DNA from: a plasmid
Assembly: GCF_055900595.2 (NCBI RefSeq)
Contig: NZ_JBVWEU010000004.1
Strand: one strand, 5' to 3'
DNA: 41,714 nt
Shown one piece after another: positions 1 to 41,626 of this stretch (positions are counted from its first letter, which is position 1; each line of letters starts with the position of its first letter). Below the pieces are notes generated by a model that was not told the origin of the DNA, did not search any database, and worked only from the letters and a program-made list of their open reading frames with translations. Position numbers and translations under genes: made by a program.

Positions 1-867
1 ATGGGAAAGAGGTCAAGTTCAGTTCTCAATTATCCACTTGTGGATAAAGTGCAGATTTTTCCGGTGGATAAGTATCGCGATAGCTTGCAATTTCTGTTTT
101 CACTGTCATTATGGGTGGGTAAAAATTTACCCATAGGCATTGAAATGGATACTCAAGCACTCTTGCCAGCTACTAAAACGTTTAAAAAACGCGCCAGTAT
201 AAAGCAATCTAACGAATTGACCGAAGCTGCATATTACCTGCCTCTTCAGGCAAAACGTGTGCTGTGGTTATGCCTCATGCAGGCCTATTTTAATGACAGC
301 CAGGAAGATGACTCTGACGTATTGCCGCTCTTCAAAATCAGCGTTTCCGATTACGTCAAATACTTCAATGTCGCTACGTCTGTCGCCAGTCGTGATGTGA
401 AGGCTGGGGTAAATGCTCTGGGCGAATCAACGGTTACCTTTTATCCAAAAGAAGGTGAGTTTGAAGAAGTTAAACGTCCGTGGCTGGCTGAAGCAGGAAT
501 GAAGCGAGGCCGGGGTTCCTGGCAGATTGAATTTAACTACAAGGTCATGCCATTCCTGGTCGGCTTAACCTCCCAGTTCACTACCTATTCTCTCTATGAC
601 TGTGGCCAGCTTAATAGTGTTCGTGTCATCCGGCTTTATGAAAGCCTGTGTCAGTTCCGGAGCACTGGTGTCTGGATCACCACACATGACTGGTTATGTG
701 AAAGGTTTATGCTCCCTGCCTCGCAGAAAAACAATATTGCTGAAATGAAGCGTACCTTCCTGGAACCTGCTCTGAAGAAAATTAATGAGAAGACGCCATT
801 AAAGGTAACATATACCACTGAAGAAGATGGTCGCTTGCTGTTTAATTTTCTTGATAAAAAACAATAG
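1..867 (+). CDS. repA: RepE/RepA-family iteron-binding replication initiator (F RepFIA RepE-like)
   Basis: 288-aa ORF; KKRASIKQSNELTEAAYYL and RLYESLCQFR segments match my recollection of F RepE; followed by an iteron array. The true start may be the internal Met at 145 (240 aa, closer to RepE length), since 1-144 carries DnaA-box-like and iteron-like sequence. Confidence 0.8.
   Translation: MGKRSSSVLNYPLVDKVQIFPVDKYRDSLQFLFSLSLWVGKNLPIGIEMDTQALLPATKTFKKRASIKQSNELTEAAYYLPLQAKRVLWLCLMQAYFNDSQEDDSDVLPLFKISVSDYVKYFNVATSVASRDVKAGVNALGESTVTFYPKEGEFEEVKRPWLAEAGMKRGRGSWQIEFNYKVMPFLVGLTSQFTTYSLYDCGQLNSVRVIRLYESLCQFRSTGVWITTHDWLCERFMLPASQKNNIAEMKRTFLEPALKKINEKTPLKVTYTTEEDGRLLFNFLDKKQ
30..72. promoter_or_regulatory. 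DnaA-box-like palindrome TTATCCAC-TT-GTGGATAA (30-47) plus GTGGATAAG (64-72) in the rep leader; candidate rep operator
   Basis: Seen directly in sequence; an operator overlapping the rep promoter is typical of RepE-type replicons. Confidence 0.4.
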
Positions 868-929
868 TCTGTAATTTTTATTTCCTCCCCCCTTAGTTTG
901 TTGCTGACATATGGGGGGATACTGAACTT

Positions 930-1337
930 GCTGTGTTTCCCATAGTGCTTGCCTAACTTGACCTGTTTCCCACACTCCCGACCGTCCGAGAAGTTGACCT
1001 GTTTCCCATAGTCCGGGCCGTCCGAGAAGCTGACCTGTTTCCCTTAGTCCGGGCCGTCCGCGAAGTTGACCTGTTCCCCACACTCCCGGCCGCCCGCGAA
1101 GTTGACCTGTTTCCCACAGTCCGGGCCGTCTGCAAAGTTGACCTGTTTCCCACAGTCCCGGCCGCCCGCGAAGTTGACCTGTTTCCCATAATCCGGGCCG
1201 TCCGCGAAGTTGACCTGTTCCCCACACTCCCGGCCGCCCGTGAAGTTGACCTGTTTCCCATAGTCCGGGCCGTCCGCGAAGTTGACCTGTTTCCCATAGT
1301 CCGGAGCGTCCATTAAAGTTGACCTGTTTCCCACAGA
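930..1337. repeat. Eleven direct 36-bp iterons (AAGTTGACCTGTTTCCCA core) downstream of rep; incC-like copy-control/incompatibility array
   Basis: Exact 36-bp periodicity (core at 955, 991, 1027 ... 1315), with two alternating unit variants. Confidence 0.85.
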
Positions 1338-3989: not shown

Positions 3990-5261
3990 TTACGCCAGTT
4001 TCGCTGAAGGAATATCTGACCATCGTGTCGTATAAGCAGGAGAAAGCATCTCCCGTTTCATCTGCCATTCCGGGGCAATACCCCGCCCCGCAAACCATAC
4101 TTTACCCAGCCCTGAGTTGTTGATCCCGTCCAGAACCTTCATCAGCTCAGCACTGTAAGGGCGTGGCGGGCGTTCGTCGAACAGCTGCAGCTGCGAAACG
4201 CCGGAGCCGGTGAAGTCATTCAGCATAACTCCGGCTTTGGCATACCGGTGCCCATCCCTCCAGATACGCTCCAGAGCCGTTGTAGCGGCTGCAATGATGT
4301 CCCTGGTGTCCTGAGTGGGTGTAAGAAGTTTTTCCGTAGCCACGTTGCCGTAGTAAGGCTCTTTAATGGCGAACGGAGACGTTTTGATGAAAACGGAAAT
4401 ATGCCGGCAATACTGGTGCTCTTTACGCAGTTTTTCAGAGGCCCGCTCTGCGTGCTGACAGATAGCCTGACGGAGTGACTCGTACTCCGTGATCTTCACG
4501 CCAAAACTGCGGCTGCAGACAATTTGCTGTTTCGTCGGAGGGGCTTCCTCAAGCGAAAGGCAGCTTTCCCCGTTCAGTTCCCGTACCGTTCGCTCAAGGA
4601 CCACAGAAAAATTTTTGCGGATGAAGGCCGGGTTCGTCAGGGCGAGATCGAGCGCGGTCTTAATGCCCAGTACATTCAGCTTGCGTGCAATACGGTTACC
4701 CACCCCCCAGATTTCTTCAACCGGCTGCAGTGAAAGCAGTTTCCGCGTTCTCTGCGGATTTCCCCTGGTCAGAGCAAGTACGCCACGAAACTGTTTCCAC
4801 TCTTTTGAGGCCCACTGGGCTGATTTTGCGAGGGTCTTCGTTGGTCCGGCGCCCACGCCAATGGTCAGGTGGGTACAGTCATACACGTGCTGACGCAGCT
4901 GCCGGCCGAAGTCCTCAAGCTCCATACAGTGCTCCACGCCGGTCAAATCGAGGAACATCTCATCAATTGAATACTGTTCCACTCTGGGGGCCAGTTCCTC
5001 CAGGCTGTTCATCACGCGCGCCAACATCGAGGCATAAAGTTCATAGTTACTTGAAAACGCATATATTTTTTCCGGGTATCTTTCGTTTTTTATCTGAAAC
5101 CACGGAGTTTCCATTTTGATCCAGGGCTTCGCCTCGGCACTGCGAGCGATTACATTCCCGTCGTTGTTGCTCAGGACGACTATCGGCTTTCCTTTCAAAT
5201 CCGGGCGGAAAACACGTTCACAGCTGGCATAGAAGCTGTTCACATCGGCCAGGGCAAACAT
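3990..5261 (-). CDS. umuC: Error-prone translesion polymerase subunit UmuC (Pol V catalytic subunit, Y-family)
   Basis: 423 aa; N-terminus [22 protein letters not shown] is typical of UmuC/MucB; start overlaps the umuD stop. Confidence 0.9.
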
Positions 5262-5692
5262 CAGTACATCTCCCTCGGGCGGTGGATGATATGCGTGACG
5301 ACGCCAAAGATATCCAGCTCGTCGGGATCAGGATAAATCGGCGACCAGGAGGCATTCATGGGCTGCAGCGTCAGTCGCGGCGTCAGCAGAAGCCGTTTCA
5401 CCGTAAACTCCCCCTGCATGCTGGCGACAACGATATCGCCGTGCCGCGGCTTTTCAGCACTGTCCACAACCAGCAGATCGCCATTGTACAGACTGCCGTC
5501 GGCCATGCTGTCTCCGCTGGCACGCAGGTAGTACGTCGCGCTCGGATGCCGTATGCAGTAATCATGGAGATCCAGATCGGACTCGACATAGTCAGCAGCA
5601 GGGCTGGGAAAACCGCAGCTGGCCAGATCGGCAAACAATGGATGGGCCTGTGGCGGGAGTTCTTTCCCGGTGCTGAAAAGTTGTAGTTTCAT
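5261..5692 (-). CDS. umuD: UmuD (S24 LexA-like self-cleaving protein, Pol V accessory subunit)
   Basis: 143 aa from MKLQLF; [12 protein letters not shown] and the GDSM Ser/Lys dyad region; Shine-Dalgarno AGGAGG upstream. The ORF track over-extends it to 270 aa. Confidence 0.85.
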
Positions 5693-5716
5693 CTTTCCTC
5701 CTGACACTCTAATTTT

Positions 5717-5734
5717 ACTGGTTATACATACAGT
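5717..5734. promoter_or_regulatory. LexA (SOS) box upstream of umuD
   Basis: ACTGGTTATACATACAGT contains CTG-N10-CAG matching the CTGT-N8-ACAG consensus, 25 bp upstream of the umuD start. Confidence 0.6.
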
Positions 5735-5739
5735 GCTCA

Positions 5740-7680
5740 CCGGGAGACCGGTAGAGATCAAGGGGTGAAAGTCCCCGACCATTGAAGGACCAGCAATCCA
5801 CAAGGTCCCCGAGTCATGCGTTGCATACCGCGAGGTATGGGGCGAAGCGTTGACAGGGGTGTTGACAGGCCAGCCATTGAGCCACGAAATGTATATTAAA
5901 TTACCGGGTGCCGACGTTGTACTGTTAACGGAAGGCAACATCATAGGGTGCGATACTGCGAGTGCCACATGGACCCGGCGGGGTCTGAGACCCTGGCATG
6001 TCAATACGATCTCTACGCGGGAACCGGGAGATCTCCCCTCTGACCATCTGCCAGTGTCGGAGACGGCCCGCACCGGGAAGACGAGGAGTCATAGCCGGTG
6101 ATGTACGGAGAGGAGAAGTCGGACTCGCTCATAGTAGCGGCGAAGCAGGCGAACAACCCGAAAGGAGCGGAGTCAGTGGAGCGAAGGAGCGGGGCCAAGG
6201 GGAACGCGGAACAGCCACACATGCGCCGGACACAGAGCCGGGAAAGCATGTCACAGAGGCTGTCACGCGTGCGGGAAGCTGCGAAGCAGCGGAAGAAAGA
6301 ACGGTTTACAGCATTGTTCCACCTGCTGACAGTCGAAGCACTGGAAGCCGCATTCCTCTCCCTGAGCAGGAAAGCGGCCGCCGGAGTGGATGGCATCAGG
6401 TGGATGGACTACGCCGGAAACATGAAGAACAACATAACAGATCTGCACCGGAGGCTACATTAGGGCAGCTACAGGGCGCAGCCCGGCAGGCGTCACTACA
6501 TCCCAAAAGCGGATGGAAAACAACGCCCGCTCGGCATCGCCTCGCTGGAGGACAAGATCGTCCAGTATGCGCTGGTGAAAATCCTGAACGCAGTCTATGA
6601 AAACGACTTTATGGGGTTCTCATACGGGTTCAGACCCGGGCGAAGCCAGCACGATGCACTGGACGCACTGGCCACAGGGCTGGTACGCACTAACGTAAAC
6701 TGGGTACTGGATGCCGACATCAGTCAGTTCTTCGACAGGGTGAGCCACGAATGGCTGATCAGGTTCACAGAGCATCGGATCGGCGACCGGAGCGTAATCA
6801 GGCTCATACGTAAGTGGCTCACAGCCGGGACGTTGGAGGAGGGTCAATGGCGAGCAACGGAGGAAGGCACCCCACAGGGTGCGGTCATCTCACCGCTGCT
6901 GGCAAACATATACCTCCACTACGTCTTCGATCTGTGGGCGCATCAGTGGCGACGTCGCTATGCCACAGGCAATGTGGTAATGGTCAGATACGCCGATGAC
7001 ATCGTCATCGGGTTCGACAAACGATACGATGCCCGGCGCTTCCGTATAGCCATGCAGCGCAGACTGAGGGAGTTCGGACTCACGGTTCACCCGGAGAAAA
7101 CCCGTCTGATGGAGTTCGGCCGCTTCGCTGCCGAAAACCGTGCCATCAGGGGAAAAGGCAAACCAGAAACGTTCAACTTCCTCGGGTTCACGCACATCAG
7201 CGGGAAAGATCGCAACGGCAGGTTCATGCTGATACGAAAGACCCGCCGGGATCGGATGACGGCAACTCTGAAAGCCATCAAAGACGGTCTGCGAAGGCGC
7301 TGGCATTACTCAATCCCCGAACAGGGAAAATGGCTCAGGAGAGTGGTTCAGGGATACCTGAACTATCACTCGGTACCGGGCAACTTCCCCACCATGCAGA
7401 AGTTCAGGACACACGTAACAAACCTCTGGCGCCGGGCGCTCAGGCGCAGGAGCCAGAAGGATGATACGACCTGGACGAAAGCAAACAAACTGGCAGCCGC
7501 ATGGCTACCAAGGGTTCGGGTTCTTCATCCATGGCCTGTGGAGCGGTTCACCGCCAGACACCCGAGGCAGGAGCCCGGTGCGTAAATCGCGCACGCCGGG
7601 ATCTGTGCGGGGGGTATCCGGTAACGGGTATCCCTACCGCGACATATTTAACAGCGTGACGATAATCCAGATCGCCTGCC
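5740..7680 (+). mobile_element. Group II intron remnant (maturase-encoding; 5' RNA domains probably truncated, 3' end abuts IS1)
   Basis: Reverse transcriptase/maturase ORF with structured GC-rich RNA-like sequence on both sides; only about 360 nt lie between the LexA box and the ORF start, less than a typical domain I-III. Confidence 0.6.
6098..7588 (+). pseudogene. Group II intron reverse transcriptase/maturase interrupted by an in-frame TAG at 6464-6466
   Basis: ORFs 6098-6463 and 6575-7585 are in the same frame; translation across the gap reads ...[38 protein letters not shown]..., i.e. one stop codon inside a contiguous RT domain; YADD motif present downstream. Confidence 0.75.
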
Positions 7681-7736
7681 GGATAATGGTGCCAACTTAC
7701 TGATTTAGTGTACGATGGTGTCTTTGAGGTGCTCCA

Positions 7737-8012
7737 GTGGCTTCCATCTCCATCAGTTGTCCCTCCTGCTCAGCTACTGAAGGCGTGGTGCGTAACGGTA
7801 AAAGTACTGCCGGACATCAGCGCTATCTCTGCTCTCACTGCCGTAAAACATGGCAGCTACAGTTCACTTACACCGCCTCTCAGCCCGGTACGCACCAGAA
7901 AATCATTGATATGGCCATGAATGGCGTTGGATGCCGGGCAACCGCCCGCATTATGGGCGTTGGCCTCAACACGATTTTACGTCACTTAAAAAACTCAGAC
8001 CGCAGTCGGTAA
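7737..8012 (+). CDS. insA: IS1 InsA
   Basis: 91 aa, [40 protein letters not shown] zinc-finger N-terminus. Confidence 0.9.
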
Positions 8013-8434
8013 CCTCACGCATACAACCGGGCAGTGACGTCATTGTCTGCGCGGAAATGGACGAACAGTGGGGCTACGTCGGGGCTAAATCACGTCAGCG
8101 CTGGTTATTTTACGCCTATGGCAGGATGTGCAGGACGGTGGTGGCACGCGTCTTTGGTGAGCGTACTCTGGCCACGCTGGAGCGTCTTCCGGGCCTGCTG
8201 TCGGCCTTTGAGGTCGTGGTATGGATGACGGATGGCTGGCCGCTTTATGAATCCCGCCTGAAGGGAGAACTGCACGTTATCAGCAAGCGATATACGCAGC
8301 GAATTGAGCGGCATAACCAGAATCTGAGGCAGCATCTGGCAAGGCTGGGCAGGAAGTCACTGTCGTTCTCAAAATCGGTGGCGCTGCATGACAAAGTCAT
8401 CGGGCATTATCTGAACATAAAACACTATCAGTAA
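7931..8434 (+). CDS. insB: IS1 InsB' frame (expressed as an InsAB' transposase fusion by -1 frameshift)
   Basis: 167-aa ORF overlapping the insA 3' end in the -1 frame, standard IS1 organisation. Confidence 0.8.
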
Positions 8435-8448
8435 GTTGGAGTCATTAC

Positions 8449-8752
8449 CAACCAGTTCACCACCTACTCGCTCCGCGATTGTGGCAGTCTTCGAAATCCC
8501 CGGACGATCCGCCTTTATGAAAGTCTTGCTCAATTCAAATCTTCAGGCTTATGGGTTACTACTCATGCTTGGTTAAATGACCGTTTCGTCTTACCGGAAT
8601 CCCAGCAGAAGAACTTGGCAGAGTTGAAACGATCTTTCCTTGATCCTGCACTCAAGCAGATAAATGAGAAAACACCTTTACTTGCTAAGTATAGTATTGA
8701 TGATTCAGGAAAATTTCTGTTCTCAATAATTGATAAGCAAAATCCCGTCTGA
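8449..8752 (+). pseudogene. 3' fragment (about 97 codons) of a second RepE-family rep gene, truncated by IS1
   Basis: Frame starting at 8462 translates ...TYSLRDCGSLRNPRTIRLYESLAQFKSSGLWVTTHAWLNDRFVLPESQQKNLAELKRSFLDPALKQINEKTPL..., paralogous to the C-terminus of the rep at 1-867; no start codon, begins at the IS1 end. Confidence 0.7.
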
Positions 8753-8799
8753 CATAAATCAGCACACATGAGCCTGTCATTTGACAAATTTTTGTCATG

Positions 8800-9160
8800 A
8801 AGATGGGCGGATTTCCACACAGCACCGGCGCCCGGTAAGGTGGGCGGATTCCCACACGGCACCGGCGCCCGGCAAGATGGGCGGATTTCCACACAGCACC
8901 GGCGCCCGGTAAGGTGGGCGGATTTCCACACAGCACCGGCGCCCGGCAAGGTGGGCGGATTCCCACACGGCACCGGCGCCCGGCAAGATGGGCGGATTTC
9001 CACACAGCACCGGCGCCCGGTAAGGTGGGCGGATTTCCACACAGCACCGGCGCCCGGCAAGGTGGGCGGATTCCCACACGGCACCGGCGCGCGGCAAGGT
9101 GGGCGGATTTCCACACGGCACCGGCGCCCGGCAAGGTGGGCCGATTCCCATATCGACATG
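8800..9160. repeat. About ten direct 37-bp iterons (GGGCGGATTTCCACACAGCACCGGCGCCCGG) of the disrupted second replicon
   Basis: Exact 37-bp periodicity from about 8801 to 9134, immediately downstream of the rep fragment. Confidence 0.8.
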
Positions 9161-9641
9161 TATGTAGCTTGTGTTATCTGTGGATTGTGCAGCTCAGCGG
9201 GTCGCTGGTCGTATGGCGGAGTGTCCCCCGTAACCGGCCGCGTGCGGCCGCTAACGCGCAGTACGGCGCCGCGTCCCGCAGACGGGCCGCCGTTCCCGCG
9301 CGCAGCACTGCGCACCCCCGTGGGGGACGTACGGCAGCTGCGTGGCGGTGAGCGGGATTAGGGCTTTGCAGCTACCGTGTTAAGTTCCCTGGTGTCGCTG
9401 AAATAGTTGATGAACATCCCCCTAAGCGTCAGCAGCAAGCTGCCGCCGCTTAGGCCCCGGAAATCACGCCCTTTACGTCGTAAACGCCGTAAAGCCCGCT
9501 CACCGGGGTTAAAAGGGATTACTTTGACTTCTTCATTGCTGTTCGCGAGTTAAGGCTAATCAGGGCAGGGGGTAGGGTGGCAGAATTTATAGCCCGGCAA
9601 CCGGCTACGCCGGGCTTTCGGCGCCATTTTACAACACAGAC

Positions 9642-19743: not shown

Positions 19744-22700
19744 ATGCCCGTTGACTTTCTGACCACTGAGCAGACTGAAAGCTATGGCAGATTCACCGGT
19801 GAACCGGATGAGCTTCAGCTGGCACGATATTTTCACCTTGATGAAGCAGACAAGGAATTTATCGGAAAAAGCAGAGGTGATCACAACCGTCTGGGCATTG
19901 CCCTGCAAATTGGATGTGTCCGTTTTCTGGGCACCTTCCTCACCGATATGAATCATATTCCTTCCGGCGTCCGGCATTTTACCGCCAGACAGCTCGGGAT
20001 TCGTGATATCACCGTTCTTGCAGAATACGGTCAGAGGGAAAATACCCGCCGTGAGCATGCAGCGCTGATACGTCAGCACTATCAGTATCGTGAATTTGCC
20101 TGGCCCTGGACATTTCGCCTTACCCGTCTTTTATATACCCGGAGCTGGATAAGCAACGAACGTCCTGGCCTGCTTTTCGATCTGGCGACAGGGTGGCTTA
20201 TGCAACATCGTATTATTCTCCCCGGAGCCACTACGCTGACCCGGTTGATTTCAGAGGTAAGGGAAAAGGCGACGTTGCGCCTGTGGAACAAACTGGCACT
20301 GATACCGTCAGCCGAACAGCGTTCACAGCTGGAGATGCTGCTGGGGCCAACTGATTGCAGCCGCCTGTCTTTACTGGAATCACTGAAAAAGGGCCCTGTG
20401 ACCATCAGTGGTCCGGCGTTTAATGAAGCAATTGAACGCTGGAAAACTCTGAACGATTTTGGCCTGCATGCTGAAAACCTGAGTACACTCCCGGCTGTGC
20501 GCCTGAAAAATCTCGCACGTTATGCTGGTATGACTTCGGTGTTCAATATTGCCAGGATGTCACCGCAGAAAAGGATGGCGGTTCTGGTTGCCTTTGTCCT
20601 TGCATGGGAAACGCTGGCGCTGGATGATGCATTGGACGTTCTGGACGCCATGCTGGCCGTTATCATCCGTGACGCCAGAAAGATTGGGCAGAAAAAACGG
20701 CTCCGCTCGCTGAAGGATCTGGATAAATCTGCATTGGCGCTCGCCAGCGCATGTTCGTACCTGCTGAAAGAAGAAACACCGGACGAATCGATTCGTGCTG
20801 AGGTGTTCAGCTACATCCCAAGGCAAAAGCTGGCTGAAATCATCACGCTTGTCCGTGAAATTGCCCGGCCCTCAGACGATAATTTTCATGAAGAAATGGT
20901 GGAGCAGTACGGGCGCGTTCGTCGTTTCCTGCCCCATCTGCTGAATACCGTTAAATTTTCATCCGCACCTGCCGGGGTTACCACTCTGAATGCCTGTGAC
21001 TACCTCAGCCGGGAGTTCAGCTCACGGCGGCAGTTTTTTGACGACGCACCAACGGAAATTATCAGTCGGTCATGGAAACGGCTGGTGATTAACAAGGAAA
21101 AACATATCACCCGCAGGGGATACACGCTCTGCTTTCTCAGTAAACTGCAGGATAGTCTGAGGCGGAGGGATGTCTACGTTACCGGCAGTAACCGGTGGGG
21201 AGATCCTCGTGCAAGATTACTACAGGGTGCTGACTGGCAGGCAAACCGGATTAAGGTTTATCGTTCTTTGGGGCACCCGACAGACCCGCAGGAAGCAATA
21301 AAATCTCTGGGTCATCAGCTTGATAGTCGTTACAGACAGGTTGCTGCACGTCTTTGCGAAAATGAGGCTGTCGAACTCGATGTTTCTGGCCCGAAGCCCC
21401 GGTTGACAATTTCTCCCCTCGCCAGTCTTGATGAGCCGGACAGTCTGAAACGACTGAGCAAAATGATCAGTGATCTACTCCCTCCGGTGGATTTAACGGA
21501 GTTGCTGCTCGAAATTAACGCCCATACCGGATTTGCTGATGAGTTTTTCCATGCTAGTGAAGCCAGTGCCAGAGTTGATGATCTGCCCGTCAGCATCAGC
21601 GCCGTGCTGATGGCTGAAGCCTGCAATATCGGTCTGGAACCACTGATCAGATCAAATGTTCCTGCACTGACCCGACACCGGCTGAACTGGACAAAAGCGA
21701 ACTATCTGCGGGCTGAAACTATCACCAGCGCTAATGCCAGACTGGTTGATTTTCAGGCAACGCTGCCACTGGCACAGATATGGGGTGGAGGAGAAGTGGC
21801 ATCTGCAGATGGAATGCGCTTTGTTACGCCAGTCAGAACAATCAATGCCGGACCGAACCGCAAATACTTTGGTAATAACAGAGGGATCACCTGGTACAAC
21901 TTTGTGTCCGATCAGTATTCCGGCTTTCATGGCATCGTTATACCGGGGACGCTGAGGGACTCTATCTTTGTGCTGGAAGGTCTTCTGGAACAGGAGACCG
22001 GGCTGAATCCAACCGAAATTATGACCGATACAGCAGGTGCCAGCGAACTTGTCTTTGGCCTTTTCTGGCTGCTGGGATACCAGTTTTCTCCACGCCTGGC
22101 TGATGCCGGTGCTTCGGTTTTCTGGCGAATGGACCATGATGCCGACTATGGCGTGCTGAATGATATTGCCAGAGGGCAATCAGATCCCCGAAAAATAGTC
22201 CTTCAGTGGGACGAAATGATCCGGACCGCTGGCTCCCTGAAGCTGGGCAAAGTACAGGTTTCAGTGCTGGTCCGTTCATTGCTGAAAAGTGAACGTCCTT
22301 CCGGACTGACTCAGGCAATCATTGAAGTGGGGCGCATCAACAAAACGCTGTATCTGCTTAATTATATTGATGATGAAGATTACCGCCGGCGCATTCTGAC
22401 CCAGCTTAATCGGGGAGAAAGTCGCCATGCCGTTGCCAGAGCCATCTGTCACGGTCAAAAAGGTGAGATAAGAAAACGATATACCGACGGTCAGGAAGAT
22501 CAACTGGGCACACTGGGGCTGGTCACTAACGCCGTCGTGTTATGGAACACTATTTATATGCAGGCAGCCCTGGATCATCTCCGGGCGCAGGGTGAAACAC
22601 TGAATGATGAAGATATCGCACGCCTCTCCCCGCTTTGCCACGGACATATCAATATGCTCGGCCATTATTCCTTCACGCTGGCAGAACTGGTGACCAAAGG

Positions 22701-22749
22701 ACATCTGAGACCATTAAAAGAGGCGTCAGAGGCAGAAAACGTTGCTTAA
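19744..22749 (+). CDS. tnpA: Tn3 transposase TnpA
   Basis: 1001 aa from [17 protein letters not shown]; the stop abuts the Tn3 inverted repeat. Confidence 0.95.
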
Positions 22750-22782
22750 CGTGAGTTTTCGTTCCACTGAGCGTCAGACCCC

Positions 22783-25424
22783 TTGTTCAGGCCGGCATGC
22801 ACGCGGCGGCGCAGTTCAACACTTTGCAGCCAGTCCAGGATGAACAGCGTGCGCTCGATCCGGCCCAGCTCGCGCAGGGCCACGGCCAGTCCGTTCTGGC
22901 GCGGGTAGCTGCCGAGCTTGCGCAGCATCAGCGAGGCGGTGACGGTGCCCTGCTTGATCGAGCTGGCCAGGCGCAGGATGTCGTCCCAGTGGGCACGCAC
23001 GTGCTTGATGTTCAGGGTGCCGCCGATCAGCGGGCGCAACGTCGGGTAGGCTTGCACGCCCTGCGGCACGTACAGTTTGGTTTCGCCGAGGTCGCGGATG
23101 CGCGGCGCGAAGCGGAAGCCTAGCAGGTGCATCAGGGCAAAGACGTGATCGGTGAAGCCGGCCGTGTCGGTGTAGTGCTCCTCGATCCGCAGGTCGGACT
23201 CGTGGTACAGCAGGCCGTCGAGCACATAGGTGGAATCGCGGACGCCGACATTCACCACGCGGGTGCTGAACGGCGCGTACTGGTCGGAGATATGGGTATA
23301 GAACAGCCGTCCCGGCTCGCTACCGTACTTCGGGTTGACGTGCCCGGTGCTCTCGCCCCGGCCACCCGCGCGGAAGCGCTGGCCATCGGAGGATGAGGTC
23401 GTGCCGTCGCCCCAGTGGGCGGCAAAGGCGTGGCGATACTGGTGGTTGACCAGCTCGGCCAAGGCCGCCGAATAGGTTTCGTCGCGGATGTGCCAGGCTT
23501 GCAGCCAGGACAGCTTGGCGTAGGTCAGGCCGGGGCTCGACTCGGCCATCTTGGTCAGCCCGAGGTTGATCGCATCACCGAGGATTGCGGACAGCAGCAA
23601 CGTCCTGTCTTTGGCCTCGGCCCCGTCCTTCAAGTGGGTGAAGTGGCGGCTGAAGCCCGTCCAGTCGTCCACGTCCATCAGCAGTTCGGTGATCTTGATG
23701 CGCGGCAGTAACTGGCTGGTTTGGTCGATCAGCGCCTGCGCCCGATCCGGCACCGCCGCATCCAGCGGGGTGATTTTCAGCCCTGACTCGGTGAGGATGG
23801 CATCGGGCAGCTCGTTGTCCTTGGCCAGGCGGGTGACGGTGGCCAACTGCTCGTCCAGCAGCTGCAAACGCTCTTCCAGGTACTGGTCGCTGTTCGGGTT
23901 GATCGCCAGGGGCAGGGCCTGCTCGCGCTTGAGTGCGGCGAACTTCTCGGCCGGCAGCAGGTAGTCGTCGAAGTCGCGGAACTGCCGCGAGCCCTTGACC
24001 CAGATGTCGCCGGAGCGCAGGGCGTTCTTCAGCTCGGACAGGGCGCAGATTTCGTAGAATTTCCGGTCGAGGCCTTCCGGGGTGATCACCAGCGGCTTCC
24101 AGCGCGGCTTGATGAAGGCCGTGGGTGCATCGGCCGGCACCTTGCGCAGGTTGTCGGCGTTCATCTCACGCAGGGTCTGCACGGCTGCCAGCACGCCTTG
24201 CGCGGCCGGCGCGGCGCGCAGTTCCAGCACCTCCAGCAAGGCCGGCGTGTAACGGCGCAGGGTGGCGAAGTTCTCGCCGACCAGGTGCAGGTGGTCGAAG
24301 CCTTCCGGCCGGGCCAGCAGCTCGGCCTCGCTGACGCTCTCGGTGAACTCGTCCCAGGGAATCACCGCCTCGATGGCGGCATAGGGGTCGCTGCCGCTTT
24401 CCTTCGCTTCCAGCAGCGCCTGGCCGATCCTGGAGTACAGGCGCACCTTGTCGTTGATCGCCTTGCCCTGCTTCTGGAACTGCTGCTGATGCTTGTGCTT
24501 CGCGCCGCTGAACAGCTTGACCAGGATGCGGTCATGCAGATCGACCAGCTCATCGATCACGGTCGCGGTGCTCTCCAGCACCACGGCGGCCAGGGTCGCG
24601 TAGCGGCGCTGCGGCTCGAACTTACCGAGGTCTTTGGGCGTCATCTGCCCACCCTCGCGGGCCAGCTTGAGCAGGCGGTTCTGGTGGATGTGCCGGCCCA
24701 GGCCTTCGGGCAAGTCCACCAACTGAAATGTCTTCAGCCGCTCGATGTGTTCCAGCATGTGCCGAGAGTTGGGTTTCAGCGGTGCCTGGCGCAGCCAGGT
24801 CAACCAGGTGATGCTGCTGCCGGCCTTGAGCTTCAACAGCTCGTCCAGCTTGGCCCGATGCGAGTCCGTGAGTGGTTCGACCAGGGCGCGGTAGACCCGC
24901 CGATTGGCTCGCGCAATGGCTTCCGAGCAGGCCCGGTCAATCACGCTCAGCGCCGGCAGGATGCGTCGTTTCTGCCGTAGGCTCTCCAGGGCCTGACCGG
25001 CCAGCAGCAAGCCTTTGTCGGTCTGCTGGGCCAGCTCGGTTAGCTCGCGCACCAGGGCGCGGAAGTCGGACAGGCCGAACGGGGCCAGTTGCAGGTAGGT
25101 GCGCAGTTCCTGGGCATGCTCGCGACGGGTCACGTCGCGCTCGCCGTACTTTGCCCAGCTCGCCGGCTCGGCCTGGACTTGCTTCGCCACCCACAGGATG
25201 ACCGGCTCGGGCAGCTCGCTGTCGGTTCCCAGCGCGTAACCGGGGTAGCGCAGCAGGCAGAGCTGCACGGCGAAGCCGAGGCGGTTGGCGTCGCCGCGTC
25301 GCTGGCGGATCAGCGACAGGTCGGAGTCGTTGAAGGTGTAGTAGCGGATCAGGTCATCCTGGCTTTCCGGCAGCGCAAGCAGGGTGTCCCGCTCCGTGGC
25401 CGAGAGGATCAAGCGACGCGGCAT
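22783..25424 (-). pseudogene. tnpA: Tn1721-type tnpA, 5' 2.6 kb, gene disrupted by the Tn3 insertion
   Basis: N-terminus [31 protein letters not shown] (Tn21-subgroup transposase); the frame runs into the Tn3 IR. Confidence 0.85.
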
Positions 25425-25427
25425 GTG

Positions 25428-25988
25428 TCAGTCGTCCGTGCGGAGGTACTGGTAGAGGGTTTCCCGGCTGATGTTGAACTCGCGGGCAAGCTGCGCCTTG
25501 GGCTCGCCGGCCGTCGCTCGCTGCCGCAGGGTAGCAGCCTGCTCATCGGACAGGGCTTTCTTGCGGCCCCGGTACGCGCCACGCTGCTTGGCCAAGGCGA
25601 TGCCCTCACGCTGCCGCTCGCGGATCAGGGCGCGCTCGAACTCAGCGAAGGCCCCCATCACCGACAGCATCAGGTTGGCCATCGGCGAGTCCTCGCCAGT
25701 GAACACCAGGCCCTCCTTCAGGAACTCGATGCGCACGCCGCGCTGAGTCAGCTTCTGTACCAAGCGACGCAGGTCATCGAGGTTGCGGGCCAGCCGATCC
25801 ATGCTGTGCACCACCACTGTATCGCCTTCGCGGACGAAGCTCAGCAGCGCTTCGAGCTGGGGGCGCTGGGTGTCCTTGCCCGATGCCTTGTCGGTGAACA
25901 CCTTGCTCACCTGGGTTTGTTCCAGCTGGCGTTCCGGGTTCTGGTCAAAGCTGCTGACCCGGACGTAGCCGATGCGGTGCCCCTGCAC
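25428..25988 (-). CDS. tnpR: Tn21/Tn1721-type resolvase TnpR
   Basis: 186 aa, MQGHRIGYVRVSSFDQNPERQ serine recombinase. Confidence 0.9.
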   Translation of the reverse strand: MQGHRIGYVRVSSFDQNPERQLEQTQVSKVFTDKASGKDTQRPQLEALLSFVREGDTVVVHSMDRLARNLDDLRRLVQKLTQRGVRIEFLKEGLVFTGEDSPMANLMLSVMGAFAEFERALIRERQREGIALAKQRGAYRGRKKALSDEQAATLRQRATAGEPKAQLAREFNISRETLYQYLRTDD

Positions 25989-26160
25989 GATGTCTCCTTG
26001 GTTGAAGGCGGCTTAAGTGCACTTTCTGTTCCGTTGTGCCTCAAAGCCCATTTCTGTCAGGCTGAAATCTATAACCTTCGCGGGCATGTGTCAAAAAATG
26101 GGAAAGCAGACTCTATTCTGACGAAGCGGCGCGGCCCTGCCTGACATCAAGTTAGGGTAT
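25989..26160. promoter_or_regulatory. Tn21-subgroup res site region
   Basis: Intergenic segment upstream of tnpR with TGTCAGG-type repeats; likely the junction between the Tn1721-like and Tn21-like segments. Confidence 0.5.
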
Positions 26161-26163
26161 GCC

Positions 26164-26514
26164 TCAACCTGACGGCGGCGAATCACAAGCGTCCGGTTTG
26201 ACGCTGGTTTCGGTCGCAGTGCTGGCCCGCGCCTGGAAGCGCTGATAGCACTCCAGCCCGCAGAAATGCTCCACGTACTCGGCCCCTTCCGGCGTGAAGG
26301 CGGCATCGAGCGGGATTTCCTTGCAGCACACGCAGCAACTGGTGCTCGGTTCATTGGCGTTCATGGTGGTGTTCCTCCATTGGTTGACGAAGCCGACGAA
26401 GGCCGCCGCCGGCATCGGCCTGGCGAACAGGAAACCCTGCACCGTGTCGCAACCCGCCTGCCGCAACCACGCAAGGCAGTCGGGTGTTTCCACACCCTCG
26501 GCTACCACCTCCAT
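26164..26514 (-). pseudogene. urf2/tnpM remnant (EAL-domain C-terminal fragment) truncated by the integron IRi
   Basis: Translation ...[30 protein letters not shown]... begins at the integron boundary. Confidence 0.5.
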
Positions 26515-26539
26515 TGTCGTTTTCAGAAGACGGCTGCAC
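26515..26539. repeat. Class 1 integron IRi (25 bp)
   Basis: TGTCGTTTTCAGAAGACGGCTGCAC. Confidence 0.8.
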
Positions 26540-26716
26540 TGAACGTCAGAAGCCGACTGCACTATAGCAGCGGAGGGGTTGGATCCATCAGGCAACGACG
26601 GGCTGCTGCCGGCCATCAGCGGACGCAGGGAGGACTTTCCGCAACCGGCCGTTCGATGCGGCACCGATGGCCTTCGCGCAGGGGTAGTGAATCCGCCAGG
26701 ATTGACTTGCGCTGCC

Positions 26717-27730
26717 CTACCTCTCACTAGTGAGGGGCGGCAGCGCATCAAGCGGTGAGCGCACTCCGGCACCGCCAACTTTCAGCACATGCGTGTAAAT
26801 CATCGTCGTAGAGACGTCGGAATGGCCGAGCAGATCCTGCACGGTTCGAATGTCGTAACCGCTGCGGAGCAAGGCCGTCGCGAACGAGTGGCGGAGGGTG
26901 TGCGGTGTGGCGGGCTTCGTGATGCCTGCTTGTTCTACGGCACGTTTGAAGGCGCGCTGAAAGGTCTGGTCATACATGTGATGGCGACGCACGACACCGC
27001 TCCGTGGATCGGTCGAATGCGTGTGCTGCGCAAAAACCCAGAACCACGGCCAGGAATGCCCGGCGCGCGGATACTTCCGCTCAAGGGCGTCGGGAAGCGC
27101 AACGCCGCTGCGGCCCTCGGCCTGGTCCTTCAGCCACCATGCCCGTGCACGCGACAGCTGCTCGCGCAGGCTGGGTGCCAAGCTCTCGGGTAACATCAAG
27201 GCCCGATCCTTGGAGCCCTTGCCCTCCCGCACGATGATCGTGCCGTGATCGAAATCCAGATCCTTGACCCGCAGTTGCAAACCCTCACTGATCCGCATGC
27301 CCGTTCCATACAGAAGCTGGGCGAACAAACGATGCTCGCCTTCCAGAAAACCGAGGATGCGAACCACTTCATCCGGGGTCAGCACCACCGGCAAGCGCCG
27401 CGACGGCCGAGGTCTTCCGATCTCCTGAAGCCAGGGCAGATCCGTGCACAGCACCTTGCCGTAGAAGAACAGCAAGGCCGCCAATGCCTGACGATGCGTG
27501 GAGACCGAAACCTTGCGCTCGTTCGCCAGCCAGGACAGAAATGCCTCGACTTCGCTGCTGCCCAAGGTTGCCGGGTGACGCACACCGTGGAAACGGATGA
27601 AGGCACGAACCCAGTTGACATAAGCCTGTTCGGTTCGTAAACTGTAATGCAAGTAGCGTATGCGCTCACGCAACTGGTCCAGAACCTTGACCGAACGCAG
27701 CGGTGGTAACGGCGCAGTGGCGGTTTTCAT
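26717..27730 (-). CDS. intI1: Class 1 integron integrase IntI1
   Basis: 337 aa full length; tyrosine recombinase motifs; Arg32/Asn39 variant. Confidence 0.95.
27615..27643 (+). promoter_or_regulatory. Integron cassette promoter Pc, strong variant (TTGACA-N17-TAAACT)
   Basis: -35 at 27615-27620 and -10 at 27638-27643, inside intI1 on the cassette strand. Confidence 0.7.
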
Positions 27731-27874
27731 GGCTTGTTATGACTGTTTTTTTGTACAGTCTATGCCTCGGGCATCCAAGCAGCAAGCGCGTTACGCCGTG
27801 GGTCGATGTTTGATGTTATGGAGCAGCAACGATGTTACGCAGCAGGGCAGACGCCCTAAAACAAAGTTAGCCAT

Positions 27875-28372
27875 ATGAACTCGGAATCAGTACGCATTTA
27901 TCTCGTTGCTGCGATGGGAGCCAATCGGGTTATTGGCAATGGTCCTAATATCCCCTGGAAAATTCCGGGTGAGCAGAAGATTTTTCGCAGACTCACTGAG
28001 GGAAAAGTCGTTGTCATGGGGCGAAAGACCTTTGAGTCTATCGGCAAGCCTCTACCGAACCGTCACACATTGGTAATCTCACGCCAAGCTAACTACCGCG
28101 CCACTGGCTGCGTAGTTGTTTCAACGCTGTCGCACGCTATCGCTTTGGCATCCGAACTCGGCAATGAACTCTACGTCGCGGGCGGAGCTGAGATATACAC
28201 TCTGGCACTACCTCACGCCCACGGCGTGTTTCTATCTGAGGTACATCAAACCTTCGAGGGTGACGCCTTCTTCCCAATGCTCAACGAAACAGAATTCGAG
28301 CTTGTCTCAACCGAAACCATTCAAGCTGTAATTCCGTACACCCACTCCGTTTATGCGCGTCGAAACGGCTAA
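27875..28372 (+). CDS. dfrA12: Trimethoprim-resistant dihydrofolate reductase, dfrA12-like
   Basis: 165 aa, MNSESVRIYLVAAMGANRVIGNGPNIPWKIPGEQ; first cassette after attI1. Confidence 0.9.
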   Translation: MNSESVRIYLVAAMGANRVIGNGPNIPWKIPGEQKIFRRLTEGKVVVMGRKTFESIGKPLPNRHTLVISRQANYRATGCVVVSTLSHAIALASELGNELYVAGGAEIYTLALPHAHGVFLSEVHQTFEGDAFFPMLNETEFELVSTETIQAVIPYTHSVYARRNG

Positions 28373-28470
28373 CCATTCCGTCAACGGGACGCCAAAATGC
28401 TGCGCATTTTGGTTCCCTCCGCTGCGCTCCGGCTCTCGTTACGTCCAACGTTAGCACCACTGAAACCCAG
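28373..28470 (+). other. attC recombination site of the dfrA12 cassette
   Basis: Imperfect inverted-repeat structure ending in GTTAGC-type core after the dfrA12 stop. Confidence 0.5.
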
Positions 28471-28483
28471 CTTTATTTAGCTC

Positions 28484-28774
28484 ATGTTTATTCAAACGGC
28501 ATTTAGCTTTTCAGGCGTTATTCAGTGCCTGTTTTGCCTTTTTTCCGGGCTTCGCCTGCATGGGCTGCGCAGGTTTTCAGTCTTTTTGGCCTCTAGCCCT
28601 TGCGTAGCAAGCGCAAGCAGCTATCGTTTTTGCAGTGCTGTGCCGCCTCGGTGGCGCAGCGTTTTTTCACGGTTAGCGCCCGTCGCCAAATTCAAGTTAT
28701 CCGTTTTGGCTTCTGGTTCTAACATTTCGGTCAAGCCGACCCGCATTCTGCGGTCGGCTTACCTCGCCCGTTAG
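28484..28774 (+). CDS. Cassette ORF of unknown function (orfF/gcuF)
   Basis: 96-aa ORF between dfrA12 and aadA, in the position of the known dfrA12-orfF-aadA2 array. Confidence 0.6.
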   Translation: MFIQTAFSFSGVIQCLFCLFSGLRLHGLRRFSVFLASSPCVASASSYRFCSAVPPRWRSVFSRLAPVAKFKLSVLASGSNISVKPTRILRSAYLAR

Positions 28775-28779
28775 ACATC

Positions 28780-29571
28780 ATGAGGGAAGCGGTGACCATC
28801 GAAATTTCGAACCAACTATCAGAGGTGCTAAGCGTCATTGAGCGCCATCTGGAATCAACGTTGCTGGCCGTGCATTTGTACGGCTCCGCAGTGGATGGCG
28901 GCCTGAAGCCATACAGCGATATTGATTTGTTGGTTACTGTGGCCGTAAAGCTTGATGAAACAACGCGGCGAGCTTTGATCAACGACCTTTTGGAAACTTC
29001 GGCTTCCCCTGGAGAGAGCGAGATTCTCCGCGCTGTAGAAGTCACCATTGTTGTGCACGACGACATCATTCCGTGGCGTTATCCAGCTAAGCGCGAACTG
29101 CAATTTGGAGAATGGCAGCGCAATGACATTCTTGCAGGTATCTTCGAGCCAGCCACGATCGACATTGATCTGGCTATCTTGCTGACAAAAGCAAGAGAAC
29201 ATAGCGTTGCCTTGGTAGGTCCAGCGGCGGAGGAACTCTTTGATCCGGTTCCTGAACAGGATCTATTTGAGGCGCTAAATGAAACCTTAACGCTATGGAA
29301 CTCGCCGCCCGACTGGGCTGGCGATGAGCGAAATGTAGTGCTTACGTTGTCCCGCATTTGGTACAGCGCAGTAACCGGCAAAATCGCGCCGAAGGATGTC
29401 GCTGCCGACTGGGCAATGGAGCGCCTGCCGGCCCAGTATCAGCCCGTCATACTTGAAGCTAGACAGGCTTATCTTGGACAAGAAGAAGATCGCTTGGCCT
29501 CCCGCGCAGATCAGTTGGAAGAATTTGTTCACTACGTGAAAGGCGAGATCACCAAGGTAGTCGGCAAATAA
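28780..29571 (+). CDS. aadA: Aminoglycoside (3'')(9) adenylyltransferase AadA, apparently mosaic (aadA2-like 5' end, aadA1-like remainder)
   Basis: 263 aa; residues about 1-65 (TIEISNQLSEVLSV...VAVKLDETTRR) resemble aadA2, the remaining about 200 aa match my recollection of aadA1 (RLASRADQLEEFVHYVKGEITKVVGK). Confidence 0.9.
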   Translation: MREAVTIEISNQLSEVLSVIERHLESTLLAVHLYGSAVDGGLKPYSDIDLLVTVAVKLDETTRRALINDLLETSASPGESEILRAVEVTIVVHDDIIPWRYPAKRELQFGEWQRNDILAGIFEPATIDIDLAILLTKAREHSVALVGPAAEELFDPVPEQDLFEALNETLTLWNSPPDWAGDERNVVLTLSRIWYSAVTGKIAPKDVAADWAMERLPAQYQPVILEARQAYLGQEEDRLASRADQLEEFVHYVKGEITKVVGK

Positions 29572-29632
29572 TGTCTAACAATTCGTTCAAGCCGACGCCG
29601 CTTCGCGGCGCGGCTTAACTCAAGCGTTAGAT
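29572..29632 (+). other. attC site, aadA1-type (60 bp)
   Basis: TCTAACAATTCGTTCAAGCCGACGCCGCTTCGCGGCGCGGCTTAACTCAAGCGTTAGAT. Confidence 0.6.
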
Positions 29633-29740
29633 GCCAGATTTGGCGTTGCGTATGCTCACAGAAAATCGACAGCCGCAAGACTGTTTTTGGCAACTCATAG
29701 CCACCACTATTTATCCTTCATACCGTAGAGGAGATTGCAC

Positions 29741-30073
29741 GTGAAGAACTGGCTCTTTCTGGCTATTGCAATATTTGGTGAGGTCGTCGCAACTTCCGCA
29801 CTGAAGTCCAGCCATGGATTCACCAAGTTAGTTCCTTCTGTTGTAGTTGTGGCTGGCTACGGGCTTGCGTTCTATTTCCTCTCTCTCGCACTCAAGTCCA
29901 TCCCGGTCGGCATTGCTTATGCTGTTTGGGCTGGCCTCGGCATCGTACTTGTGGCAGCTATCGCTTGGATCTTCCATGGCCAGAAACTAGACTTGTGGGC
30001 GTTCGTTGGCATGGGACTTATCGTTAGTGGCGTCGCCGTTCTAAATCTGCTATCCAAGGTCAGCGCACATTGA
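29741..30073 (+). CDS. qacH: SMR-family quaternary ammonium compound efflux protein (qacH/qacF-like cassette)
   Basis: 110 aa from a GTG start, four-TM SMR fold ([23 protein letters not shown]); not qacEdelta1. Confidence 0.8.
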
Positions 30074-30140
30074 TCGGGCTGGCATCTAACAGTTCATTCA
30101 AGCCGACGCCGCTTCGCGGCGCGGCTTAATTCAGGTGTTA
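30074..30140 (+). other. attC-like site after the qac cassette
   Basis: Sequence similar to the aadA attC (CAAGCCGACGCCGCTTCGCGGCGCGGCTTAA). Confidence 0.4.
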
Positions 30141-30319
30141 GTCGGACGCCTACGGCGCCGAGGAAAAAAGAAACCAAACCATTCTTGCTGCCAAAGAGAA
30201 AAACCCCTTACGGTGGCGTACTGGGAAAGTGCGTATCTACGACGCCTTGCCGGTCTCAATGTCATGCCGTCCTCTTTCGAAGGCTGCTTGATGCAAACCT
30301 CTCAAAAATCTGGCATAAA

Positions 30320-31006
30320 CTATCTTGACATATTCCGATTGAACACCTTCCGAATATCAGCGGCTATCAGCGGGATCTCATCTTTTTTCGTGACGTAGGA
30401 GTGGGCATTCTGCTGCAGATGAAACTGGCAGCGTTGCCACAGAATTCCAGGGAAGACAGCATCGATTGCCGCGCGCAGTCCTGAGTGGTCATCACTGGTG
30501 ATCATTCGCAGGCCGTGCATCCCTCGTCGTACGAGACCCTCGAGAAAGGAACGCCAGTTTACCTCTGCCTCACTGTTCGCGACTTCGGCGTCAAGAATAT
30601 GCCGATTCCCGCTGTAATCAACGCCAATAGCCACTAGAAGCGCCTGCTTGACCACATGGGAACCGACGCGAACCGATTCATAGGTCGCATCAAGTACCAA
30701 GTATTGAATCTGTCCGACAGGCTGCGCCTTCCAAGACGTAATCTCTTCATCGAGCTCCTTTGCCAGCCTGCTGACCTGGGACGAGCTGACTTCGGTGCCA
30801 CAAAGAATTTCGACGATATCCGAGACCCTGCGGGTACTTACTCCTTTGACATACATTTCGGCGATGGCGAGCTTGAGAGCACGCTCACTGCGCATGCCTT
30901 TCTCGATGCAGCTGGGATAAAACTCCATCCCGCGAACTTGTGGTACTTTCAAGAGGACTTTCCCGGTCGCAAGATTGAATATTGGATTATTTGGATTTAC
31001 CAACAA
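30320..31006 (-). pseudogene. Internal fragment of an IS256-family transposase (IS440-like element reported next to sul3)
   Basis: 228 aa aligning to the middle of IS256-family transposases (YPSCIEKGMRSERALKLAIAEMY...WQRCQFHLQQNA); both the N- and C-terminal parts are absent. Confidence 0.7.
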
Positions 31007-31250
31007 ACACTACTATTTAGCTACGAAAACTCAAGAGAAGTACACAAAACCTTTTGGAAGTGATGGAAGTTTAAGTCCTCTTGATTATAGTGTAGGTATT
31101 GGAACAGGTTTAGAATTAGGACATTTCCAGTTTATGTTTGGCTATGATTACCCTCTTAGTAACAGTTCGAAAGATCCAGACCTAAGTCAAGTACGCCAAC
31201 ACAACTTCAGAGCAAGTATAGCATATTCATTTAGAAAGCTAAAAAAATAA
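30975..31250 (+). pseudogene. Possible C-terminal fragment of an outer-membrane beta-barrel protein
   Basis: 91-aa ORF with alternating hydrophobic pattern in low-GC DNA; weak. Confidence 0.3.
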
Positions 31251-31252
31251 AA

Positions 31253-32044
31253 CTAACCAAGGGCTTTGGATATTTTCAAGGCATCTGATAAAGACTTAAC
31301 ATCATGGGTGCGGAGATAATCTGCACCTTTTTTGTATGCATACATTTCTGCTGCAAGAGTTGGTGCTAAACGAGATTTCACATCGGTTCCAGTTATTTTA
31401 CCTAAGAATGATTTCCGTGACACTGCAATCATTACTTGCAAATTAAAAGCTTCTTGAATTTCAGGGAAACGCTTCAAAACAAGAATAGATGTTTCTGGAT
31501 TAGAGCCTAAAAAGAAGCCCATACCCGGATCAAGAATAATTCGTTCACGCTTTACACCAGCCTCAACTAAAGCAGCAATTCTTTCTTTAAAAAATTCCAT
31601 CATGGAAGTAAAAACCTCTTCCGGATTCGTTTCAACTTTAGTAGCTGCACCAATTCGCTGAACGGAGTGCATCAACACAAGTTTGCAATCTGACTTTGCC
31701 AAGCCTGAATAAATCTCAGGATAAGGAAAACCTTGAATATCATTAATAAAATCAACCTTTTGTTCTATGCAAAAACTCTGAACCTCAGGTTTAAATGTAT
31801 CAACAGAAATAGAAATGCCTTTTTCTTTTAAAGCCTTAATGACAGGTTTGAGTCTTTTGATTTCTTCCACAACGCCCACTTCAGTTGTATCAGGATTACT
31901 GGAAGCGGCTCCCAAATCAATCACATCTGCTCCATCTTCAACCAAATGCAGAGCATGCTCAATTGCCTTATCTGTATCTAAATAAAGTCCTCCATCGGAA
32001 AAACTATCGGTGGTTATATTTACGATTCCAAAAATCTTGCTCAT
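31253..32044 (-). CDS. sul3: Sulfonamide-resistant dihydropteroate synthase Sul3
   Basis: 263 aa, MSKIFGIVNITTDSFSDGG; low-GC context. Confidence 0.9.
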   Translation of the reverse strand: MSKIFGIVNITTDSFSDGGLYLDTDKAIEHALHLVEDGADVIDLGAASSNPDTTEVGVVEEIKRLKPVIKALKEKGISISVDTFKPEVQSFCIEQKVDFINDIQGFPYPEIYSGLAKSDCKLVLMHSVQRIGAATKVETNPEEVFTSMMEFFKERIAALVEAGVKRERIILDPGMGFFLGSNPETSILVLKRFPEIQEAFNLQVMIAVSRKSFLGKITGTDVKSRLAPTLAAEMYAYKKGADYLRTHDVKSLSDALKISKALG

Positions 32045-32795
32045 ATCATTTTGCTTTGATTACAAAAGTAGCATTTATCTTAATTGACTAATTATCACTT
32101 ACGCAAATTGACACATTTTCCCTATCTTTGCAGCCTAATTTTTTTGTTTTAATTCATTATGAAAACTGATAGGAACTGTCATTTCGAGTTTTTCGCGGTT
32201 TTGGGTCAAAATTCGGTTTTTTCCCCGAACTACGACTGTTTTCGCACCCCGAACAACTAATCCAATCAGAATTTTCCGGCAACGCCGACTCCAAGAAGTG
32301 TAATTCCAGTCTATTTCTGCCGTCAACCCCTGATTCGCGTTAATGCGACAAAGCTCAAACACATAACTCCCCCACGAAGCCATATAAACTCCGATTTCGA
32401 GGTGTTATCCTGTTCCGCATAAACTTCGTTTTTGGGTATTATACCTACACCAAAGCAAGAAGATTATGGGTCCAAACTTCATTTGTATATTTTGCAAACA
32501 AATATCTGCCTGTCATATCTGTCGGAGTGTGGTGATACTCCTTTGCATTAAAAATGCGCTGATAAAAGGTAGTTCAGCAAAAGGCGAAACGCCAATAAAT
32601 ATATCTATAACCGGTTTCGCCCGTTGATTGGGTATCGCCGTGCTTCCGATATGTTCAATGGCTACGGCATGAGAACCGAAAAAATGGAGCAATTTTATTT
32701 TCTCTTCTTCAAAATTCTTTGTCTAATCCGGGTTATATTCCATAATTTCAATTTTCATGATAGTTTCGTCCTTGCCTCAAAAACCATGTTTGGTA

Positions 32796-33659: not shown

Positions 33660-33804
33660 AGATATTCTCCTTTAGGCTATTATAGAAAGATTATTATAAG
33701 CGAAATTAATACCGTTAAACGCCATGAGCCCGACAATTTTGAGCACTTTGTTTTGTACTCCCAGAAGCTCACCACTACAAATTATCATCAACCCGGTCCT
33801 TTTT

Positions 33805-37259: not shown

Positions 37260-37278
37260 AGACTCCTCCTATGCTCAA

Positions 37279-41590: not shown

Positions 41591-41626
41591 AAAGCCGCGT
41601 ACAGTGCGGCCTGAGAGGGGGCCTGT

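Follow-up and report, generated by a model that had tools for sequence, protein, structure and literature searches.

The stretch analysed here, a plasmid sequence of 41,714 nucleotides (contig NZ_JBVWEU010000004.1 of NCBI RefSeq assembly GCF_055900595.2; hereafter the window, whose positions are used throughout), contains a composite locus in which a copy of the insertion sequence IS1 lies directly against the 3' remnant of a second replication initiator gene, repA of incompatibility group N1 (IncN1), and this remnant is followed by an array of 37-bp iterons. The IS1 copy (7682-8449, plus strand), the only one in the window, is intact, 768 bp long and IS1X3-like in isoform, and its left end falls at 7681 when the window is compared with an IS1-free relative. 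It displays the features of the IS1 family, namely a length of about 768 bp, inverted repeats of the roughly 23-bp type (here imperfect, GATAATGGTGCCAACTTACTGAT / GGTAATGACTCCAACTTACTGAT, the right end reading ...ATCAGTAAGTTGGAGTCATTACC), the genes insA (7737-8012, plus strand) and insB (7931-8434, plus strand), and an A-run frameshift site near 7988; in relatives it is annotated as 'IS1-like element IS1X3 family transposase'.

A first-pass annotation of the sequence had described this IS1 as abutting the tail of a second rep gene without a target duplication, and both points hold: the repA tail starts at 8450, and the 8-9-bp target-site duplication of IS1 is absent, since the 9-bp flanks CGCCTGCCG and AACCAGTTC are unlike. 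To the left of IS1 lies a short stub of IncR-associated backbone (7646-7680, plus strand) that runs from the 3' end of a group II intron to the element and forms the left breakpoint. The intron 3' end (about 7645-7651) was placed from BLAST coverage classes, in which intron copies elsewhere stop at query position 166-172, because the Rfam match comprised domains D1-D4 only. An IS1-free IncFIA/IncR relative (L010) matches the window as far as 7680, beyond which it carries a ParM-like partition locus, of which the window holds no trace, and the right flank of IS1 opens inside repA. Because both flanks are discontinuous relative to these relatives and no target duplication is present, the IS1 is a rearrangement endpoint rather than a simple insertion. 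The junction fits an adjacent deletion driven by IS1, or a cointegration followed by recombination between two copies of IS1. Either would have joined IncR and IncN DNA, and the earlier proposal of an IS1-mediated deletion or cointegrate event fusing two replicons is thus borne out by breakpoints at both flanks. Neither the reciprocal junction (the 5' half of repA joined to the left end of IS1) nor an ancestral simple insertion was found in any of 72,556 PLSDB plasmids, so the rearrangement intermediate is unsampled in that collection.

Homology to IncN plasmids begins at repA nucleotide 415-418, right at the end of IS1, and the remnant (8450-8752, plus strand) is a pseudogene that comprises codons 140-239 and the stop of an initiator whose full length is 239 codons; the tail had been recognised from the outset, with a count of 97 codons that becomes 100. 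The tail (translation NQFTTYSLRDCGSLRNP...IIDKQNPV, then stop) shares 98% protein identity and 97% DNA identity with repA of pLK75 and R46, both IncN1 plasmids, a comparison with intact replicons that upholds its derivation from a rep gene. The Pfam domain Rep3_C, the second winged-helix domain (WH2), matches the tail with E=6e-10 and 39.7 bits (cut-off 21.1), whereas Rep3_N (WH1) is represented by its last 25 residues only, at 20.0 bits against a cut-off of 22.4. By these matches the fragment derives from a member of the Rep_3 family (PF01051 and PF21205) and is incomplete as a member, and its first assignment to the RepE family is right in this broad Rep_3 sense, the specific identity being IncN1. 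The Prokaryotic Genome Annotation Pipeline (PGAP) labels the tail in relatives as a partial rep pseudogene ('replication initiation protein, incomplete, missing N-terminus').

The initiator is dead, as had been claimed, since codons 1-139 are missing along with the start codon and the promoter. Within the tail, the first start available in frame leaves 45 amino acids, and no sigma-70-like promoter was found in 8300-9700. The tail lies in the insB frame, with the TAA of insB and five codons (VGVIT) in between (8432-8452). Production of a truncated Rep protein was considered and judged unlikely, given the lack of a start before the 45-amino-acid open reading frame, the lack of a promoter-like site and the TAA after insB; an insB-repA read-through fusion is conceivable and likewise unlikely. 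We also searched the whole circular molecule for a complete copy of this rep gene, which would have undercut the claim of a dead initiator: tblastn with full-length IncN RepA matches only the tail and the RepB paralogue at 1-867.

Downstream of the repA stop, a 16-bp near-palindrome conserved in R46 (TGACAAATTTTTGTCA, 8782-8797) separates the gene from the first iteron, and the IncN1 downstream array then extends over 8800-9150 (plus strand). Tandem Repeats Finder reports a period of 37, 9.5 copies, 92% matches and a score of 590 over this interval, and a consensus scan resolves it into nine full units (8800-9132), each with 0-3 mismatches, and a tenth that is partial and degenerate (9133-9150), in agreement with the initial estimate of about ten 37-bp iterons. 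The array is far above chance expectation. Several of its units are identical to units of R46 and pLK75, and the positions that vary among the relic units are those that vary in intact arrays; as far as sequence can tell, the relic repeats are indistinguishable from functional IncN repeats. The core of the 37-bp units, AAGGTGGGCGGATTYCCA, is the reverse complement of the origin iterons that R46 carries upstream of repA.

Comparison with the intact IncN1 replicon defines what the IS1 boundary removed. Upstream of repA, R46 carries first a DnaA box (ATATCCACA), next an AT-rich stretch and then five 22-bp repeats (TGGGAATnnGCCCACCTT; L004, 31440-31660), and the relic core AAGGTGGGCGGATTCCCA, read on the opposite strand, gives the R46 upstream repeat TGGGAATCCGCCCACCTT. 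Since upstream and downstream repeats share this core, IncN1 is laid out like P1 and F, with origin iterons, rep and a second array. The window contains no segment homologous to the IncN origin module and no origin-type repeat cluster anywhere, and the survivor is the downstream auxiliary array only, the origin iterons having been lost. The early description of the iterons as intact is therefore correct for the downstream array, which was kept, and not for the origin iterons, DnaA box and AT-rich region, which were deleted. We considered the array as the IncN origin itself and ruled this out, as R46 has its canonical origin module on the other side of repA, upstream, in DNA that the window has lost. 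Relative to the R46/pCU1 IncN1 replicon, with which it shares the repA 3' end, the 37-bp array and the downstream CUP-type repeat at 88-97% DNA identity, the relic lacks the origin module, the promoter and codons 1-139, and because these are gone it cannot self-replicate. Its likeness to P1 incA and F incC lies in initiator-binding-type repeats downstream of rep, outside the origin, that have a core in common with the origin iterons; it differs from them in its unit of 37 bp with a GC-rich spacer, as opposed to 19 bp, and in the Rep proteins. Later accounts (PMC9412624; PMC6052338) cite work on pCU1 (Krishnan and Iyer, 1990; Papp and Iyer, 1995) as having defined the binding of RepA and a part played in replication and in copy control.

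The relic resides on an IncR multiresistance plasmid, whose close relatives are typed IncR in PLSDB. In pCUVET19-1426.1 the match to window positions 41049-41714 runs directly into the match to 1-1334, and because both window ends are contiguous there, we take the window as a complete circle opened at repB. The functional resident replicon (IncR replicon, 1-1336, plus strand) comprises repB (1-867, plus strand), the IncR initiator gene with Rep3_N and Rep3_C domains in Pfam, and its own downstream array of 36-bp units in 10.5 copies (958-1336); the IncR origin region, with DnaA boxes (GTTATCCACTTATCCAC), an AT-rich stretch and upstream repeats, lies just before repB on the circle (about 41500-41714). 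This layout of DnaA boxes, AT-rich stretch, upstream repeats, rep and downstream array is the same as that of IncN1.

The locus is not peculiar to this molecule. Counting a plasmid when it fully covers a 121-bp junction probe across the IS1/repA boundary, we find the exact junction in at least 680 PLSDB plasmids, hosted mostly by Klebsiella and Escherichia and also by Enterobacter, Citrobacter, Shigella and Salmonella. In E. coli it occurs in 162 records, from 157 of 5,426 complete genomes, including F-type plasmids and a few chromosomes. A junction shared in this way is consistent with one event spread by descent, and its unchanging breakpoint can usefully mark the lineage of the umuCD-retA-IS1X3 module. 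The locus has also been published, as 'region N' of IncR plasmids, composed of IS903B, IS1X3 and an IncN repA remnant with iterons and 'linked to many IncR plasmids' (PMC9412624). Region N of pST1023 (Microorganisms 2022, PMC9412624) has the same element beside retA on an IncR backbone, and differs in carrying 24.3 iteron copies, compared with 9.5 here, and other surrounding accessory modules. A second published arrangement, ΔrepA-iteron I-CUP6-resP of IncN1-F33:A-:B- plasmids (mSphere 2018, PMC6052338; mSystems 2023, PMC10654068), is alike in that an insertion sequence has truncated IncN1 repA from its 5' end while the 37-bp array and CUP were kept in another plasmid type; it is nevertheless an independent event, with IS26 at repA nucleotide ~36-39 where the window has IS1 at nucleotide 415-418, on an IncFII backbone and with 31 repeats. 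Found in hundreds of plasmids, published as region N and annotated by PGAP as a matter of routine, the feature is an already known, ordinary rearrangement scar. Its practical value is chiefly for annotation and typing, in that the tail and array can lead replicon-typing tools or readers to spurious IncN replicon calls on IncR, IncF and IncHI2 plasmids.

We think it likely, with good though not full confidence, that the locus is an inert, hitch-hiking evolutionary relic. According to this reading, an IncN1 replicon would have been brought beside an IncR backbone, and the IS1 boundary would then have taken away everything upstream of repA codon 140, that is, the origin, the promoter and the N-terminal 139 codons. 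The truncation was probably a single ancestral event, because the breakpoint is identical throughout, and it would have left over the repA pseudogene tail and the 37-bp array, by position and core sequence the IncN counterpart of P1 incA and F incC. In an IncR host without IncN RepA, the array should have no binding partner and no effect, and its persistence would come from linkage to the successful umuCD-retA-IS1X3 backbone module rather than from need. Its copy number would drift by unequal recombination, from 1 to 24 among relics. Should an IncN1 plasmid enter the same cell, its RepA should bind the repeats, and the copy number or stability of the newcomer could drop; this binding is expected because the repeats match functional ones and from general iteron biology, and titration of IncN RepA in trans, which the first-pass annotation had also raised, is accordingly best described as plausible.

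The sizes of the arrays accord with drift. Relic arrays have 1, 7, 9, 9, 10, 17 and 24.3 copies and those of intact replicons 6, 6, 30 and 31, so that array size is unconstrained in relics and intact replicons alike. Some relics have nearly lost the array, the strain ABWA45 retaining one copy, and in a LAU-OXA plasmid the BLAST match stops before the array, with iterons there uncounted. The plasmid pBY63-1 carries two relics, one with 10 iterons behind an IS1 cut at codon 140 and the other with 12 behind an IS26 cut at codon 14. Among the matches listed for E. coli, repA is truncated from the 5' side at nucleotides 16, 36, 39, 120, 205, 305, 333, 415 and ~700, and every one of these classes keeps the repA 3' end, with arrays counted for the nucleotide-36 and nucleotide-415 classes only; to set against these approximately nine classes, a single 3'-truncated copy (1-288) appears among the same matches, which also include classes reduced to the array alone. 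The locus at 32523-33742 of L008 belongs with pBY63-1 and these truncation classes.

Several of these observations weigh against an inert relic. The bias toward 5' truncation could hint at selection for the array or against the origin. Compared with functional arrays, the repeats have not decayed, which could reflect recent origin or homogenisation and would equally be expected under selection. Finally, the sole trans case among the matches listed, ABWA45, in which relic and IncN plasmid occupy separate molecules, has a relic of one iteron.

The alternative that draws most on these points is that the array is a working incompatibility determinant, which would sequester or handcuff IncN RepA so that incoming IncN plasmids are under-replicated and lost, giving the IncR plasmid an edge; we regard this as unlikely, while granting that it has a definite case. 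When cloned, the iteron arrays of P1, F, R6K and RK2 cause incompatibility, and the relic iterons are identical or near-identical to functional units and have their core in common with the origin iterons. An array has been kept in no fewer than two truncations that arose independently, one due to IS1 (codon 140) and one to IS26 (codon 14), both of them present in pBY63-1, and further 5'-truncation classes keep the repA 3' end, although their arrays are uncounted. A preference for such fragments is nonetheless explained at least as well neutrally, by hitch-hiking with the resistance region: because the IncN resistance region lies just downstream of the iterons, fragments captured for their resistance genes would reach leftwards through the array and be cut at arbitrary points within or ahead of repA. 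The array is, moreover, sometimes lost.

Co-residence of relic and IncN replicon bears on the same question. In ABWA45, the only strain with a relic and an IncN plasmid in trans among the matches listed, the IncN plasmid carries 31 iterons while the relic, on a separate plasmid, has one iteron and then an IS110-family element (L005, 8637-8673; L006, 4768-5914). This pattern is compatible with incompatibility exerted by long arrays and is not decisive, as trans co-residence is a single case. A match to the 5' half of repA (at least 80% covered) occurs in 289 of the 5,426 E. coli genomes, an upper bound for intact IncN replicons, given that copies truncated at nucleotides 16-39 make up about one third, and truncated copies in all about half, of 60 listed matches to that half. 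Co-occurrence of relic and IncN is expected by chance in about 8 of the 5,426 genomes, and the listed matches could not reveal a depletion. Against an incompatibility determinant there is also pCUVET19-1426.1, where an intact IncN repA with 30 iterons, a 17-iteron IS1 relic and the IncR replicon coexist in cis on one molecule, though this arrangement is itself uninformative on incompatibility because the IncR replicon can carry the plasmid. The informative co-residence cases among the matches listed number two, too few for statistics. If the array does titrate IncN RepA, it would be a natural incompatibility determinant of one plasmid family against another, and this would bear on which resistance plasmids can coexist in Enterobacterales; the idea itself belongs to classical iteron biology.

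A broader version of this idea, to which we assign a slightly lower probability still, holds that IncN arrays are repeatedly retained 'RepA sponges', possibly with a secondary origin, through which IncR, IncF33 and IncHI2 plasmids interfere with or exploit incoming IncN plasmids; if true, it would account for the marked excess, in many plasmid lineages, of 5'-truncated repA remnants that keep the array.

We hold it very improbable that the relic retains a RepA-dependent secondary origin of the pCU1 type, in or just past the array, which would give the IncR plasmid a conditional second origin. The plasmid pCU1 reportedly has three origins within about 2 kb, and a weak DnaA-box-like sequence, TGTGGATTG, follows the last iteron of the relic, at a place where R46 is also AT-rich. 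The title of one study describes the oriS of pCU1 as RepA-dependent (Zoueva et al., 2003). The canonical module, however, is the one upstream of repA that was deleted here, and the window has not conserved the short AT-rich stretch that R46 shows just past its array. Least probable of all, and in our view barely credible, is cross-binding of the IncN array by the resident IncR RepB, which would make it an extra copy-control (handcuffing) locus: RepB and IncN RepA are 57% identical, WH2 region included, the two replicons have the same architecture with repeat periods of 36 and 37 bp, and 13 of 18 positions of their iteron cores are in common, but the five differing positions are central, a pattern typical where specificities are distinct, IncR and IncN replicons are found together in cis, and relic arrays of 1-24 copies occur in viable IncR-type plasmids with no constraint visible.

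Beyond the array, about 220 bp of IncN1-derived sequence remain (9151-9371, plus strand), comprising the weak DnaA-box-like motif and a CUP-type repeat at 9169-9371 (named 'CUP6' in PMC6052338), and IncN homology stops at 9371. The following 270 bp (9372-9641) lead to IS903B and are without a match in R46. The right boundary of the relic is IS903B itself (IS5 family; 9642-10698, plus strand), an assignment with which the annotation of relatives agrees. It too lacks a target duplication, its flanks being AACACAGAC and GCGCGGGGC, and lone IS903-type terminal repeats occur at 11717 (plus strand) and 37461 (minus strand); together, the lone ends and the missing duplication suggest further IS903-mediated rearrangements or truncated copies.

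IncN-like fragments continue past IS903B (10700-11716), among them stbA on the minus strand (10782-11168), an array of an 11-bp repeat in 8.7 copies (11228-11320) and the segment 11394-11716, which is 80% identical to the oriT-side region of R46 (R46 19991-20312). This segment is a candidate IncN-type oriT, by which a 'non-mobilisable' IncR plasmid would become mobilisable; the relatives are typed as mobilizable in PLSDB. Elsewhere, the plasmid carries parAB, umuCD and the group II intron with ltrA/retA. An Rfam scan of 5000-12500 matched intron domains D1-D4 at 5768-5993 and nothing else, and ltrA/retA (6098-7585) is divided by one internal stop into open reading frames at 6098-6463 and 6575-7585, an 'internal stop' likewise annotated in pBY63-1 and pCUVET19-1426.1. 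The multiresistance region occupies 14300-33700 and includes tet(A)/tetR, blaTEM, two Tn3-family transposases, intI1-dfrA12-aadA and sul3, and a 40-bp tandem repeat (2.1 copies, 97% matches) lies at 37274-37358.

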